Below, piece after piece: positions 23,617 through 28,482 of a DNA stretch of 64,000 nucleotides (position 1 is the first letter of the stretch; each line of letters starts with the position of its first letter). Where the stretch lies: assembly GCA_035455165.1 (NCBI GenBank), contig DATIFP010000214.1:2571-66570 (forward strand), in the 5' to 3' direction. A model generated the notes under the pieces. It saw only the letters and a list, made by a program, of their open reading frames with translations, was not told where the DNA came from and did no database searches. This stretch comes from Blastocatellia bacterium. GTDB taxonomy: Bacteria; Acidobacteriota; Blastocatellia; UBA7656. A program made the position numbers and the translations under genes.

Positions 23617-23705
23617 GAGAACCGTGATGCGTGAAGAGTGATTCGTGAAGAGTGATTCGTGATGCGTGAAACGTGAATCATCCCATCACGGATCACGCAT
23701 CACTC
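23617..23705. repeat. CGTGA-rich inverted/tandem repeat element (copy 1)
   Basis: cgtgatgcgtgaagagtgattcgtgaagagtgattcgtgatgcgtgaaacgtga...tcacggatcacgcatcac. The arms are reverse complements (CGTGATGCGTGA / TCACGCATCACG). A related copy lies at 54836-54924. Confidence 0.7.
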
Positions 23706-24131
23706 ATCTCTCTTCGTTTGACAATGGCAGCCGCCAAGCTCGATCATTCGGCTATGAGCGCCGGACCGCCAGACGACCTTCCAGGAAGGGTGTTTGAATT
23801 CGCCAAAGCTACTGAAGCGCCCGAAGATTCATTCTTGATGAAGCGCCTTAACCTGCACGACGCAGATGAGGTTCAAGAAGTCATCGACGGCTTAACTCTG
23901 TCTCTTATCAGCTTCTGCTATCACCGCCATCCGCGCGGCGAAAATGTTCACGAGGTGATGGAAGAACTTGACCGAGCCCGGTCCGGTTCACCGGAAGCCA
24001 CGCGGCTGGAAGAGCGCGCCGACGACGCGGCCGCGCTCCAGATACCTTTTATCGTAAACCTCAACAAGCTTGTCGAGGATTATTACCACCTGAGGCGGCG
24101 CCTCGAAGCAAGGCTGCGGGCCGAAGAGTGA
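23673..24131 (+). CDS. Hypothetical protein
   Basis: ORF without recognisable motifs. The first codon is GTG and the first ATG (23724) has no clear RBS. Divergent from comEC. Confidence 0.35.
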   Translation: MNHPITDHASLISLRLTMAAAKLDHSAMSAGPPDDLPGRVFEFAKATEAPEDSFLMKRLNLHDADEVQEVIDGLTLSLISFCYHRHPRGENVHEVMEELDRARSGSPEATRLEERADDAAALQIPFIVNLNKLVEDYYHLRRRLEARLRAEE

Positions 24132-24214
24132 GCGCGAGATCACCCGAACTTTACTCCGGCCTGATTAGAACTCCTGGAACCTGCGCGAAGTTCGGCAATC
24201 AGACATTAGCCCGG

Positions 24215-24592
24215 TTATTCGTCGCCGTCATTGCCTTCGTCAGGCTCCGCATCCGCCCCTGTGAGCCCTTTTATCTCCGCCGAGATCTCCGCGCGTCGGC
24301 CCTTCGCGAGCTTCATTATGGCCGACAGATGTTTTCTGGCTCGGCGCGCGGCCGCCTTGTTACCCTTCTGGCGAAAGACCATGTTTTCGGCGGCGAACCT
24401 TCCGACTTCTACGAGAAGCTGCCCGGTAGTCGAGCCCTGCACGCGACGGTCAAACAGGCGGCGCTCACGCCCCGTGCGGCGCTCGGGCACGCCCGGCGGG
24501 GGACCTTGGTCCTGCTCGCGGCGTTCTCCCCTGCGGCGGTCCTCTCCCTGCCGGCGCTCGTCGACGGTCAGGTTGAAATCGTTTTCTTCCAT
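24215..24592 (-). CDS. Histone H1-like (Hc1-type) nucleoid protein with an Arg/Glu-rich N-terminal extension
   Basis: C-terminal KGNKAAARRARKHLSAIMKLAKGRRAEISAEIKGL resembles the chlamydial Hc1 / HCT-subfamily histone-like motif (GNKAAAQRVR..). ATG 24592 with GGAGACTAAG upstream. Confidence 0.6.
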   Translation of the reverse strand: MEENDFNLTVDERRQGEDRRRGERREQDQGPPPGVPERRTGRERRLFDRRVQGSTTGQLLVEVGRFAAENMVFRQKGNKAAARRARKHLSAIMKLAKGRRAEISAEIKGLTGADAEPDEGNDGDE

Positions 24593-24792
24593 CTTAGTCT
24601 CCAGCTTGTAGTTTCTTTTTAGCGGCCGACTGGGTGAGCCATCCGATAACTGTGTGACTTGGGAACCAGGGGCGTCCCAGCACGCGGTAGTCTATCACAG
24701 AGGGCTCAGGTTGCAAGAGAATAGACGAGCGTATCGGTTGAGGAGCGTATCGTGTCGTTAGCTCCATATCGGTGCGCTAAGACGACGCCAAC

Positions 24793-25416
24793 TTACGCCT
24801 CGCTATAGTGGTCTCTCGGCAGTGCTATGCGGACAAGATAATAGCAGAACCGAGAACTCACGTGTTCCGCGTAAGGAGTCACCAATCTGCACCGGCGCTT
24901 TGTATCGAGGTCTAGTCGGTAATAGACCTCCTCAGTTGGAAGACTAAAATAGCGTTTGAAATCAATACCAAGCTCCGGGAGGCCCACATCGCACGCATCG
25001 TCTTGCGGTTGAACCTTTTCGAGGAACTGATACCGCTCATCCTTGTTAGCCCTGATGCGCTTCCAAATGTCCGATTTGATGCCCTCCCTTCCTCGAAGTT
25101 CTTCTGCCGTCACTACCTCACAAAAAAGAACTGAAGGGAGCAGCTTGTCAGAGGAAACACCAGCGTTGTTCCTGGCTCCAAAATCCTGAATCAGGTCGCA
25201 GTCCTGACTAACGATAATGGCATAGGGATGATTTACGGAATCGATGAATGCAGTTTCCTCAGTGAGACTATCCAGCTGCAGTTTGACCTGAACAATATCC
25301 GTCAGGATCTCACCTTGCCGGAGAGATTTCGCCCGATCAGATCGCTCGTAAATTCTTGTGTGTAGAGCTTGCGATACCGATAGTCGTAGTTCAGTCGATT
25401 GTTCTTCAGACGCCAA
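24793..25416 (-). CDS. Hypothetical protein (low-GC island gene 3)
   Basis: No internal Met. Begins with TTG at 25416, with GAGGAG 10 nt upstream overlapping the stop of the preceding gene. ~48-50% GC against a ~62% background. Confidence 0.5.
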   Translation of the reverse strand: MASEEQSTELRLSVSQALHTRIYERSDRAKSLRQGEILTDIVQVKLQLDSLTEETAFIDSVNHPYAIIVSQDCDLIQDFGARNNAGVSSDKLLPSVLFCEVVTAEELRGREGIKSDIWKRIRANKDERYQFLEKVQPQDDACDVGLPELGIDFKRYFSLPTEEVYYRLDLDTKRRCRLVTPYAEHVSSRFCYYLVRIALPRDHYSEA

Positions 25417-25423
25417 GACACTC

Positions 25424-25813
25424 TTACTCCTCAGTTGCCTGGAAGGCAGGCCTATCGTACTTATCTCCCAGCCTTACTCTCGTGCCTGCGGAGTGTAAGA
25501 ACTGAGCGGGACTAGTACTGTTTCGGCTGCTATAAAACCTACAGATTTCCGCGATGGATTCGCAAGCTTCAGGCAGGCCCTTATCAGAGACTAAATTGAC
25601 TAAGTAATGACAAATTATGCGATATCTCAGACTCTCGCGCGATTCTGCTTCGATTGAGGTCGCGGGAGCACTTACAGAAATGGTATGCCTAATATTTCCG
25701 CCCGACACTTCCTGCTGCCATCCCAAGACAAATGTAGGCTTCGCACCTCCTGTCTGAGAGCTTGCTTCGTATTGGAAGCTCGTTTCAAATTGGCAAGGGT
25801 TCCATTGCCTCAT
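25424..25813 (-). CDS. Hypothetical protein (low-GC island gene 2)
   Basis: Start taken at MRQWNP (ATG 25813, GGAG 9 nt upstream). Overlaps the gene-1 stop by ~29 nt in another frame. Confidence 0.45.
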   Translation of the reverse strand: MRQWNPCQFETSFQYEASSQTGGAKPTFVLGWQQEVSGGNIRHTISVSAPATSIEAESRESLRYRIICHYLVNLVSDKGLPEACESIAEICRFYSSRNSTSPAQFLHSAGTRVRLGDKYDRPAFQATEE

Positions 25814-26570
25814 TAAGTCGCTCCGTAATGCACCAACGGAAAAGGCGAGCAGATTGCTCGTTGAAGAAGTCGAGTATCTTGATGGCATCGTTTAGCTCCG
25901 TTCGTTGATCAGTGGAAAAATCGCTATCGATGAGGTAGCACACCTCTTTTTCTTGGTTGAAGGCTAGCCCATGGTTGATAAGAACCTGGCCGCGACCGTC
26001 CAACCGAATCGTTACCTGATTGGCACTATGAACAATGTCATGTGCTATCTCAGATGATAGTTCCCCGGCAATATGAGGCTTCAGCAAAGCAGACCAAGGC
26101 GCTTCGGATAGCCCCAAGTTCGATCGCTGAATAACATCTCGATATCGCAACCCTATTCTACTATAAAAGAGTGGTGAATATAACTGTACAAAAGATTCGA
26201 GGGCGTGAATTAGTTTCTCCTTAAATACCTCCCATCGCTCGTATTTCACCGTCGATAACGCTAGAGATTCTCTGTCCATGCTGACCTTCCATGACTGGTC
26301 GCCCGAGATAAACTCGTAAGATGCCTTCCCGCCACGGAGTGAAATTGGACCGCTCGAACCAACTAGGTTTGCGAGATCAGGTGCCAAGTTGAGCTTAACC
26401 TCGGAGGTCTGAGAATCACCAAAAATTGGATAGGTTTCTCTAAGCTTCTCCTGGTACTGCGCTGGAACCTCTGTATCAATGCGCAGGATTGCGGGGAATC
26501 TTAACTGGCAGATAACCTCAACCAAAGGATTCTTTCTGTATATTACTCGGGACGATTCGGGGAATGCCAT
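25785..26570 (-). CDS. Uncharacterised protein resembling the TIGR04255 conserved-hypothetical family (low-GC island gene 1)
   Basis: The N-terminal YRKNPLVEVICQLRFP closely matches my recollection of TIGR04255-family N-termini. ~260 aa. Start at MAFPESS (ATG 26570); the track ORF extends to a TTG at 26654. Confidence 0.55.
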   Translation of the reverse strand: MAFPESSRVIYRKNPLVEVICQLRFPAILRIDTEVPAQYQEKLRETYPIFGDSQTSEVKLNLAPDLANLVGSSGPISLRGGKASYEFISGDQSWKVSMDRESLALSTVKYERWEVFKEKLIHALESFVQLYSPLFYSRIGLRYRDVIQRSNLGLSEAPWSALLKPHIAGELSSEIAHDIVHSANQVTIRLDGRGQVLINHGLAFNQEKEVCYLIDSDFSTDQRTELNDAIKILDFFNEQSARLFRWCITERLNEAMEPLPI

Positions 26571-26756
26571 CTCCTTAGCAATAACCTCCTCAAGACTAGC
26601 CAGAGAGTTCAGGCGACCGGCTGCGACTCTACAAAAAACATTATACTCCGTCAACCGCGCTTTAAGCTATTTTTGGCGGAATCAGAATTGAGCTGTCCGC
26701 AACCGTCGCAATCCCCGTTTGACGAGCCGAGCTTTGGGTCGCCCGTAGGCCTAAGT

Positions 26757-28445
26757 CTACCTCAGCATCTCTCGAGCATGGCGGCGGGCGCTTTCGGTGA
26801 TCTCGGCGCCGGTGAGCATTCGGGCAATCTCTTCGATCCTCCCGCGGCGATCGAGAGATTCAACGCCGATCTCGGTTCGCCCGCCGGCGGCATCCTTGCG
26901 CACGAGCAGATGCGTGTCGGCGAAGCGCGCGATCTGCGGTTGGTGAGTCACGCAAAGAACCTGATTGCTCTCCGAGAGCTTCTTCAGCTTGATACCCACC
27001 GCTTCACTTACGCGGCCGCCAATGCCGCTGTCGATTTCGTCGAATACGATCGTGCGAGGAAACTCGGAGGCGCCCGCCACCGTCTTCAACACAAGCATTA
27101 GCCGCGACGCTTCGCCGCCCGATGCTACCTTGGCCAGCGGCCGCACCGCTTCGCCGATGTTCGCCGAAAAATAGAACTCGACACGATCGATCCCGTTCGC
27201 CGTAAACGAAGCTCGAGCCTCATCGCCCTCCAGCTCCGAATCCGGCGGAGTCGTGATCTGTACTTGAAACCGGCCGTCTTCCATCGCCACTTCCGCGAGT
27301 CCTTCTTCTACCGCGCGCTCGAATCGCTTTGCCGCGCGCACACGTTCGCGATGAAGCTTTCGCGCGCGGTCGAGATACGTATTCCGGGCAGAGACGAGTT
27401 CGGCTCTGAGCTCGTCCAGTATTTCGTCGGATCGCTCGATCTGTCGCAGCCGGTCCTCTGAGCGAGCGAGGTGCTCGAGCGCAGATTCGATCGAGCCGCC
27501 GTACTTGCGTTTCAAACGCGATAGCTCGGCAAGCCGGTTCTCAATCTCCTCCAGCCGCGCGGGCGAAAACTCCAGCCCGTCGGCGAAGTCTCGCAGCGCG
27601 AACGCGAGGTCCTCCAGCAACGCCCGCGCCGTCTCGAGCCCCTCGCGATACTCGCTGAAGCGCGACTCGTACTCGGCTAGCTCGTCGACCCGACGCGACG
27701 TTTGCCTGATGCGCGTTATCGCCGAATCGTCGTCTTCATACGTGAGGCTAAAACCTTCGGCGCAGACAGTCGTGAGCTTCTCGACGTTGTTCAGCCGCCT
27801 CCGTTCCTCTTCCAGGCGTTCGTCCTCGCCGACGACCAGCAGGGCGCGCTCCAACTCATCAATCTGAAAACGAAGGATGTCGATGAGTTGGAACTTCTCG
27901 GCTTCTTCCTTGCTTTGTTCTTCGAGTTGGTTCCTGACCGACGACCACTGAAGGTGAGCGGCGGCCACTTGTTTTCTCAACGAGGCAATGCCTGCAAAGG
28001 AGTCGAGCAATTCGATGTGCGTGCGAGGCTCGAACAACGTCTGTTGATCACCTTGCCCGTGAATGTCCGCAATGTACGGCTGGAGCTCGCGCAGCAATGA
28101 CTGCGTGGCGAGCTGGTGATTGACGAATATTTTGTTTCTGCCGCTCGCGGCAAGCTCGCGCCTGATGATGATCTCAGGGCCGTCGGCTTCTATCCCCGAG
28201 TCGCGCAGGAGCTGCGCGAGCGCGTTGTTGCCCTCAAGCGTGAATGATCCTTCGATTGATCCTCGATCGCGGCCGGTCTTCAGGAGATCGGAGGCGAATC
28301 GACCGCCGATCAGCACGCCGAGCGCGTCCACGATGATCGATTTGCCAGACCCGGTTTCACCGGTGAGGAGGTTGAGCCCTCGATCGAATTCGACCGTGAG
28401 ATCGTCGATCAGCGCGATGTTCGAAATATTGAGGAGCGTGAGCAT
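26757..28445 (-). CDS. recN: DNA repair protein RecN
   Basis: N-terminal Walker A (LLTGETGSGKSIIVDAL). Long coiled-coil middle region. C-terminal SMC-type signature region. Start at MLTLLNISN (ATG 28445). Confidence 0.9.
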   Translation of the reverse strand: MLTLLNISNIALIDDLTVEFDRGLNLLTGETGSGKSIIVDALGVLIGGRFASDLLKTGRDRGSIEGSFTLEGNNALAQLLRDSGIEADGPEIIIRRELAASGRNKIFVNHQLATQSLLRELQPYIADIHGQGDQQTLFEPRTHIELLDSFAGIASLRKQVAAAHLQWSSVRNQLEEQSKEEAEKFQLIDILRFQIDELERALLVVGEDERLEEERRRLNNVEKLTTVCAEGFSLTYEDDDSAITRIRQTSRRVDELAEYESRFSEYREGLETARALLEDLAFALRDFADGLEFSPARLEEIENRLAELSRLKRKYGGSIESALEHLARSEDRLRQIERSDEILDELRAELVSARNTYLDRARKLHRERVRAAKRFERAVEEGLAEVAMEDGRFQVQITTPPDSELEGDEARASFTANGIDRVEFYFSANIGEAVRPLAKVASGGEASRLMLVLKTVAGASEFPRTIVFDEIDSGIGGRVSEAVGIKLKKLSESNQVLCVTHQPQIARFADTHLLVRKDAAGGRTEIGVESLDRRGRIEEIARMLTGAEITESARRHAREMLR

Positions 28446-28482
28446 CAACAACTCATGTGATTGACAACGCGCGGCCGCAAAC

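Follow-up and report, generated by a model that had tools for sequence, protein, structure and literature searches.

Type III abortive-infection (Abi) RNases such as ToxN, AbiQ and CptN are neutralized by repeated RNA antitoxins. In the tripartite toxin-antitoxin (TA) systems TAC/CmdTAC (with a SecB-like chaperone), PaaR-PaaA-ParE and MqsRAC, three genes are co-transcribed and the third protein controls the TA pair; several of these systems act in phage defense. A split MazF-like fold with a helical insertion is found in GajC, the effector of the validated anti-phage system type II Gabija (PMC13069673). The protein family TIGR04255 is described as a 'sporadically distributed protein' with no assigned function, and a literature search with the family, its InterPro names and its partner accessions returned no paper mentioning them in the library covered. 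Here we analyzed a stretch of 64,000 nucleotides (nt) from a Blastocatellia bacterium, a soil acidobacterium (assembly GCA_035455165.1, contig DATIFP010000214.1, positions 2,571 to 66,570; this whole stretch is called the window, and positions are counted from its first letter). Between recN and a gene for an Hc1-like histone (hc1) it carries a compact block of three genes, g1, g2 and g3, the first of which encodes a TIGR04255-family protein.

We consider, with a probability of about 0.55, that the three genes make up an undescribed, self-contained module of the TA or Abi type that was transferred horizontally, and in which g3 would be the effector, g2 its neutralizer and g1 a shared regulatory or sensing subunit. 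This reading was preferred for the combination of a weak, coupled start for a protein with a toxin fold, a small partner encoded upstream, and a patchy mobile distribution with allele turnover. The original prediction, made from the letters of the window, had proposed a small toxin-type or defense module. The MazF/CcdB fold of g3 favors the toxin type; PADLOC gave no match, and a defensive or toxic activity is putative.

An insertion between recN and hc1

The block is flanked upstream by recN (26757..28448, minus strand; TIGR00634, 538 bits; synteny in relatives) and downstream by hc1, encoding an Hc1-domain histone-like protein (24215..24592, minus strand; PF07432, 30.1 bits). Both are host genes outside the module, and both had been named correctly in the original prediction. 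A metagenome scan with RecN returned 80 loci, 15 of which, with RecN 66-87% identical, keep the host synteny. In all 15 of these Blastocatellia relatives the order is gmhB-recN-hc1-(orf)-comEC and the recN-hc1 gap is only 121-570 nt, compared with a spacer of 2,164 nt in the window; g1, g2 and g3 are carried at none of the 80 loci, the 15 syntenic ones included. Since recN is directly followed by hc1 in the syntenic relatives, the block is an insertion of ~2.0 kb, reaching roughly from 26744 to 24721-24792.

The ends of the insert were placed by junction alignment. Its left end lies directly past the host-type TAGGCCTA motif downstream of the recN stop. On the right side, conserved host sequence restarts at CTTGCAACC, the hc1 promoter region (window ~24720-24689), and the right end falls between this promoter and the stop codon of g3, uncertain within 24721-24792. 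Low GC, junction alignment and the relatives without insert together delimit a feature of ~1.98-2.02 kb (24721..26744, minus strand). A repeat of CGATACGCTC in two copies (24724-24752) was rejected as the insert boundary; relatives carry their own short tandem repeats there, and it is probably host spacer.

GC content is 0.485 in the cassette vs 0.587 and 0.598 in the flanks, and at third codon positions it is 0.50 vs 0.67-0.73. No other 1.8-kb stretch of the 64-kb window is as low in GC as the cassette (z = -5.9 vs all other stretches of this length); its low GC had been noticed at the outset, but the flanks are at ~59-60% rather than the ~62% given then. Atypical GC together with an empty site in close relatives identifies the block as a horizontally acquired island, as was first proposed. 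The cassette does not qualify as an integrative element: the insert contains no integrase and, besides g1-g3, no open reading frame (ORF) of at least 60 amino acids (aa) on the coding strand, no tRNA lies within 11 kb, and a search for terminal direct or inverted repeats around the insert found none. The missing integrase and tRNA had been correctly noted before. An Rfam search of positions 24000-27000 gave no match.

Three genes with overlapping and coupled starts

The three ORFs are co-oriented and packed or overlapping, as first described, and all lie on the minus strand. The first, g1 (25785..26570), encodes 261 aa and starts with an ATG six bases after AAGGAG. Its assignment to TIGR04255, already made in the original prediction, was confirmed by a full-length match to the hidden Markov model of the family (positions 2-251 of the 252 in the profile; E = 3.9e-45 and 154.6 bits, with a curated cut-off of 30 bits), and its homologues are named TIGR04255 by NCBI and JGI too. 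A promoter-like site (26626..26654, minus strand; TTGACG, 17 nt, TAGAGT) was detected by consensus scan ~55 nt upstream of the g1 start; as such sites are no more numerous than in shuffled sequence, it is a candidate only.

The g1 protein has an internally duplicated, TBP-like alpha/beta fold, and the open face of its sheet carries a set of conserved Arg, Gln and Asp residues (R24, Q22, R138, R142, D215 and D217). A Foldseek search against the PDB returned nothing convincing; weak fold matches were to enzymes (guanidino kinases, Glu-Cys ligase, AdoMetDC), and neither SecB nor a helix-turn-helix (HTH) protein or other known regulator was among the listed structural matches. No PDB sequence matched g1, which has no close solved relative, and PHROGs gave a weak match to a function-unknown family only (PHROG 5464).

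The second gene, g2 (25424..25888, minus strand), encodes a small partner protein of 154 aa and has its stop at 25424. Its start had been placed at 25813, which would give 129 aa and was probably mis-set. Upstream of the g1 stop, the g2 frame runs on without a stop codon for 104 nt or more in 42 of 42 related loci, whereas the third frame is mostly interrupted within ~30 nt. An ATG stands at the site homologous to window position 25888 in 38 of these loci, usually with GGAG ~7 nt upstream, and an ATG near 25813 in only about a third. Because of this open frame and conserved ATG, g2 probably starts at 25888, overlapping g1 by 104 nt. The internal ribosome-binding site (RBS) GGAG and the g2 ATG (25886..25897, minus strand) lie within g1 codons (Thr-Glu ... 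Asp-Ala), and ~34 codons (25785-25888) are read in two frames, as the C-terminal helix of g1 and as the N-terminus of g2. The same overlap of ~100 nt is annotated in a Rhizobium plasmid triad and is also present in IMG/VR contigs. We also noted that the peptide motif M-x-S-x-x-L-T...S-S-x-G from the dual-frame part is retained even in triads with an otherwise unrelated g2.

Overall, g2 is poorly conserved (17-37% identity), with a conserved helical core, RLxCHxLxxxLPxxGLxExxExLxxxxxFY, and a conserved tail, RPxFxhxEE-stop. Homologues were recovered by position and tblastn; a word-indexed homology search found g2 itself only. No match was obtained in Pfam, NCBIfam, PADLOC or PHROGs, and a PDB search with the g2 profile returned designed helical proteins only.

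The third gene, g3 (24793..25416, minus strand), starts with TTG and has no Met codon anywhere. Its product of 207 aa was also called by NCBI (HSB11889.1). At the g2-g3 junction (25414..25432, minus strand), GAGGAG (25432..25427) forms the final two codons of g2 and is followed by TAA (25426..25424), seven bases and the TTG of g3 (25416). In 23-25 of the 42 loci, the TTG of g3 stands 2-8 nt past the g2 stop and GAGGAG or GAGGAA, the final codons of g2, serves as RBS. Translational coupling of g2 and g3 is thus a family trait; the TTG start and the coupling had both been read correctly from the window. The two genes are thus adjacent, co-oriented and coupled in translation, as is expected of a type II TA pair. 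Owing to the TTG start and the RBS in the last codons of g2, synthesis of g3 is predicted to be low and dependent on g2 translation. A TA or Abi-type module is further suggested because the small upstream gene precedes a toxin-fold gene with a stop-start gap of 7 nt and with the RBS inside the upstream gene.

The fold of g3 is a MazF/CcdB/Kid-type SH3-like barrel with an insertion at ~residues 104-128 and an N-terminal extension. As the barrel covers the toxin chain, g3 falls into the PemK/MazF/CcdB fold superfamily. Conserved motifs comprise LRQGE, HPYAIIVSQDCDL, NKDERYQF, GIDFKRYF, RRC, SPYxEH and RhALP; the motif [ST]Q[DSA]CD[LI] is invariant, and invariant residues include Q71, C73, D78, H185 and R189. 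By a comparison of strand order and motifs, i.e. not by a residue-level structural alignment, the nearly invariant H63-P64 stands at the place of the MazF R-P pair, and T102, which is not invariant, near the position of MazF T52. This fold could not be seen by the original prediction, which had found no recognizable motifs in g2 and g3. Neither PADLOC nor PHROGs was matched by g3, and its family profile matched no PDB sequence. The family is sizable, with 830 word-indexed homologues and 1,865 clusters at 50% identity in 1.84 billion representatives. Fusions of g2 and g3 were considered and rejected, since the longer g3 homologues merely carry low-complexity extensions. In place of a ribonuclease, g3 might be an inhibitor that binds a protein, for instance a poison of the CcdB kind directed at DNA gyrase or some other protein target; we regard this as quite improbable.

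Distribution, sister triads and host flanks

The g1-g2-g3 order is kept in ~40 loci, which represent six bacterial phyla. A scan of 185,579 species genomes yielded 44 loci of the g3 family, all in metagenome-assembled genomes (MAGs) and belonging to Acidobacteriota, Planctomycetota, Chloroflexota, Nitrospirota, Myxococcota and Pseudomonadota. Contigs with a g3 protein labeled Nitrosopumilus by NCBI carry the triad as well. Wherever the flank was available, g1 stood upstream and a g2-sized ORF lay between g1 and g3, and cassette GC was 2 to 18 points under that of the flanks in 47 of 47 loci examined. The triplet is therefore conserved as a unit across phyla, one of the checks first suggested, and it is very sporadic. 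The idea that the low-GC block is a chance fluctuation in composition or a chimera of MAG assembly, with small ORFs that are not genes, deserves hardly any credence. The source is a MAG and NCBI left g2 unannotated, but same-order homologues of the three ORFs exist in ~40 independent assemblies, among them closed chromosomes and also plasmids from cultured strains, both models are confident, and the junctions with host sequence are clean.

In Chloroflexota, the cassette occupies one conserved site, downstream of an orthologous metallophosphoesterase gene. Two of these loci (L045 and L048 in our numbering) have this neighbor 89% identical, with g1 at 42% and g3 at 66%; in another pair (L047 and L048), the neighbor is 60% and g1 86% identical. 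As the identities of g1 and g3 are discordant with the neighbor and with each other, alleles appear to have been replaced and shuffled at this site. Within Anaerolineae/Phototrophicaceae (L022, L027, L028, L032, L042 and L045-L049), the cassette always follows the co-oriented gene of ~413 aa, which lies ~1.3 kb upstream of g1, and a GH32 gene often follows the cassette. These cassettes are 13-18 GC points under their flanks, with shuffled g1 and g3 alleles.

Decayed copies of the cassette exist as well. One locus (L019) was considered as a natural cassette lacking g1 and rejected, since its g3 is frameshifted too, making it a decayed copy. In an Alphaproteobacteria MAG (L050, 5778-6240), the g3 homologue is reduced to its C-terminal 66 residues; the ORF directly before it resembles what we take to be the N-terminal arm domain of a P4-type integrase, and the locus may be the remnant of an island that once carried the cassette. 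The empty site, low GC, sporadic loci, plasmid and phage copies, allele replacement and decayed copies argue for a mobile module of the TA or Abi type.

Some genomic neighbors point in the same direction. The closest relative of the cassette adjoins a Type I restriction-modification (R-M) operon (hsdRMS), a copy on a Methylocystis plasmid adjoins an Abi-family gene and a recombinase, and some plasmid or phage copies of TIGR04255 adjoin Bil-like genes, VapBC plus a methylase, or a HigBA-like pair. The proximity of some copies to Type I R-M, Abi-family, Bil-like, or VapBC plus methylase genes was counted in favor of the TA or Abi-type reading. A tendency of TIGR04255 to occur in defense-type neighborhoods had been put forward in the original prediction. 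Several copies do adjoin genes of the R-M, Abi, TA or Bil-like kind or are situated in the accessory regions of phages, but a general enrichment in defense islands was not seen in 37 chromosomal loci, for which no background rate was computed. The position beside recN and a nucleoid protein gene, to which meaning had been attached, has none, as other loci adjoin unrelated housekeeping genes.

An accessory operon outside genetic conflict, spread by gene transfer, with g1 as enzyme or ligand binder and g3 as RNA- or DNA-binding factor in a housekeeping-like role, would be consistent with the conserved charged cluster on the open sheet of g1 and its weak matches to enzyme folds, with the placement of most chromosomal copies among housekeeping genes, and with the retention of the Chloroflexota cassette at one site across many genomes. 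We judge it unlikely: presence is extremely patchy, with an empty site in all close relatives, GC is persistently atypical, copies occur on plasmids and phages, alleles are shuffled at a conserved site, and a toxin fold, a coupled weak start and antitoxin-like HTH partners are hallmarks of TA or defense systems.

Such HTH partners were found in sister triads, which emerged when plasmid and phage sequences were searched by tblastn with g1. In these triads, too, a TIGR04255 gene stands first in an operon of three, on a plasmid or in a temperate phage, but its partners differ. In the triads from Acinetobacter, Vibrio, Klebsiella, Rhizobium etli and Chroococcidiopsis plasmids, the second gene encodes an HTH protein similar to Xre, HigA or MqsA, the most frequent type of antitoxin. 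Their third gene (273-305 aa) shares with g3 the motifs QG, hhh[ST]Q[STD]CD[IL] (SQ[SDT]CD[IL]) and R.A[LF]P. Antitoxin-like HTH proteins in the middle and g3 motifs in the third gene lend further weight to a TA or Abi-type module. Homology between the short and long forms of the third gene is proposed from the SQxCD, QG and R.ALP motifs and from operon position, not from profile statistics: in HMMER the long forms scored near 0 bits against the g3 profile, and hhalign of this profile with single long-form genes gave no statistical support. A search of E. coli genomes with the Klebsiella triad found no match.

In a second class of triads, the third gene (~220-260 aa) carries a conserved G[LM]TC[AS]T motif ('GLTC[AS]T' class) and possibly encodes a Cys-dependent enzyme. 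These triads include (i) Burkholderia phage vB_FKKS3 (L142 3501-5531); (ii) a plasmid of Rhizobium sp. CB3060 (L052 4001-6174); and (iii) three IMG/VR contigs (L149, L151 and L153). In temperate phages of B. pseudomallei, the triad of this class lies in the integrase-proximal accessory region and adjoins the HigBA-like pair. The third genes of sister triads and the partners in the 'GLTC[AS]T' class have no Pfam or NCBIfam family. On the Rhizobium plasmid, pCB3060_2, genes for a multiubiquitin-domain protein, a ThiF-family E1 and a DUF6527 protein (L052 1192-3489) lie immediately upstream of the triad; this set represents Bil-like ubiquitin-type defense genes, and an IS110 transposase is nearby.

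Tentatively, and with somewhat less confidence than would make it a favored reading, TIGR04255 may supply the sensing or regulatory subunit to a whole class of conflict systems, large and so far undescribed, which would be modular sets of three genes with an exchangeable downstream pair. This class would span chromosomes, plasmids, temperate phages, at least six bacterial phyla and probably Thaumarchaeota, and would protect against phages or stabilize mobile elements; the g3 family would be a new catalytic MazF/CcdB-fold branch with a Gln-x-Cys-Asp site. The exchangeable pairs would comprise (i) a small protein with a short MazF-fold effector, the pair present in this cassette; (ii) an Xre-HTH protein with a long SQxCD effector; and (iii) another protein with a 'GLTC[AS]T' putative Cys-enzyme.

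The sister triads also bear on the roles within the module. Possibly, g1 is itself the direct neutralizer or immunity protein of g3 and g2 an adaptor or regulator (an HTH repressor in sister triads, a docking peptide here). Only g1 is common to triads with unlike third genes (MazF-fold and 'GLTC[AS]T' classes), the N-terminal ~34 residues of g2 are encoded within g1 and kept where the rest of g2 differs, which suggests a link between g1 and g2, and an HTH-bearing g2 could be merely a repressor. We hold this assignment to be rather unlikely, as one neutralizer for structurally unrelated effectors would be unusual (Panacea-type antitoxins are a known case), and as the tight coupling of g2 and g3 and the co-variation of their types fit a g2-g3 pair better.

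A few observations concern the host sequence next to the insert. The hc1 promoter-like element (TTGCAA at 24716-24711, 16 nt, TGATAGACT at 24697-24689, minus strand) is strongly conserved, and together with the ~110-nt hc1 leader (AGCCCGTGCTGCGGGACGC..CTGGTCCCCAAGGTCAAGCGGTTGTC..; window 24593-24720, minus strand) it is common to 12 Blastocatellia relatives. A conserved RNA structure in this leader was rejected, as there was no covariation, RNAalifold gave no supported consensus structure and Rfam no match. The recN-hc1 spacers of relatives (L061-L139) contain genome-specific short tandem repeats, e.g. TAGGACCAA in three copies, GTAGTCC in varying number, and GGTTTCTGG/CCAGAAACC palindromes, which could be terminators or protein-binding sites. 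Between hc1 and comEC, an ORF of 152 aa (23673-24131, plus strand, i.e. opposite to hc1) is found in the same place in relatives (59-78% identity); apart from a weak sub-threshold match to DUF5925, no family could be assigned to it.

Proposed working and comparison with described systems

For the TA or Abi-type module, we infer toxicity from the fold of g3 and neutralization from the adjacency of g2, and any role in phage defense would likewise be a prediction. g2 would be made first and in excess, and would bind g3 and hold it inactive; its conserved C-terminal tail may fill the substrate groove of g3, like the MazE tail in MazF. Only ribosomes finishing g2 would reach the weak TTG start, such that g3 would be made in small amounts. 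Once free, g3 would act as a growth-arresting effector that, like MazF, Kid and ToxN, most probably acts on RNA by binding or cleaving it, with an active site of its own around the invariant [ST]Q[DSA]CD[LI] motif and with an H-P pair in place of the MazF R-P. The component common to this and the sister triads, g1, would be the regulatory or sensing subunit: its open sheet face would bind a charged ligand, nucleic acid or the g2 protein, and it would decide when g2 is lost or displaced, e.g. upon phage infection or loss of the element. This reading gains plausibility because a MazF-like protein with an insertion is the validated defense effector of type II Gabija (PMC13069673).

Several points weigh against it. 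Toxicity, neutralization and phage defense of the module are all putative. No match was found in PADLOC-DB v2.0.0 for g1, g2 or g3 at E up to 1, nor for the partners in sister triads. Neighbors vary by locus, with housekeeping genes in the majority; for the 145 ORFs next to the 37 chromosomal loci, PADLOC matches were limited to a few R-M methylases and mads-like proteins (no background rate computed). The exact triad was present in only 1 of 2.9 million viral contigs. In g2, domain searches revealed no DNA-binding domain for autoregulation (HTH, ribbon-helix-helix (RHH) or AbrB) and no known antitoxin domain, i.e. it is not an AbrB, RHH or CcdA antitoxin, and its terminal Glu-Glu may be conserved only as codons of the g3 RBS. 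At E up to 0.1, g3 matched nothing in Pfam or NCBIfam, including PemK/MazF (PF02452) and CcdB (PF01845), and hhalign of the g3 profile with E. coli MazF and ChpB gave a probability of 0.06%, i.e. no link to MazF at the sequence level. Retention of the MazF catalytic Arg and Thr (R29 and T52 in EcMazF) in g3 is uncertain, and its invariant Cys, Gln and Asp residues are suggestive of a chemistry other than that of MazF.

If the proposal is correct, TIGR04255, which has had a name and no function for more than a decade, would gain a context as the head of three-gene modules. The g3 family (~1,900 clusters at 50% identity) would form a new MazF/CcdB-fold branch unseen by Pfam, NCBIfam and PADLOC, with a conserved motif different from that of MazF and possibly a different chemistry. 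The module would also provide a testable candidate defense or addiction system with relatives in tractable hosts, on plasmids of Klebsiella, Acinetobacter and Vibrio and in Burkholderia phages. The expression design is unusual and conserved, as the second gene starts ~100 nt inside the first and the TTG of the third uses the last two codons of the second as RBS. With regard to annotation, g2 is missing from the public NCBI record of the genome and g3 is listed there as a 'hypothetical protein' of a Blastocatellia MAG.

In its presumed way of working, the module resembles MazEF, PemIK (Kid-Kis) and CcdAB. It differs in that g3 has no sequence similarity to these toxins and is not a member of PemK/MazF or CcdB, is twice as long, and has an insertion and motifs of its own ([ST]Q[DSA]CD[LI], NKDERY and GxDFKRYF), with 'HP' where MazF has 'RP'. 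In addition, an obligatory third gene (TIGR04255) lies upstream here and overlaps g2 by ~100 nt. Compared with type III TA systems (ToxIN, AbiQ and CptIN), no tandem repeats precede g3 and Rfam gives no match; a conserved protein gene, g2, stands there instead. GajC of type II Gabija works with the UvrD-type helicase GajB (PMC13069673), whereas neither a helicase nor an ATPase is encoded in the insert or conserved next to the triad at the loci examined, and the partners are TIGR04255 and g2. With the tripartite TA systems the module would share three genes and a proposed third component controlling a TA-type pair, but this component, g1, comes first in the operon, has a TBP-like duplicated fold without SecB, HTH proteins or other known regulators among its listed matches, and recurs with at least two unrelated classes of third gene. 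The proposed antitoxin and the third component are of no known type. Within TIGR04255, g1 is a full-length member, and what is new here is that members of this family head three-gene operons on chromosomes, plasmids and phages.

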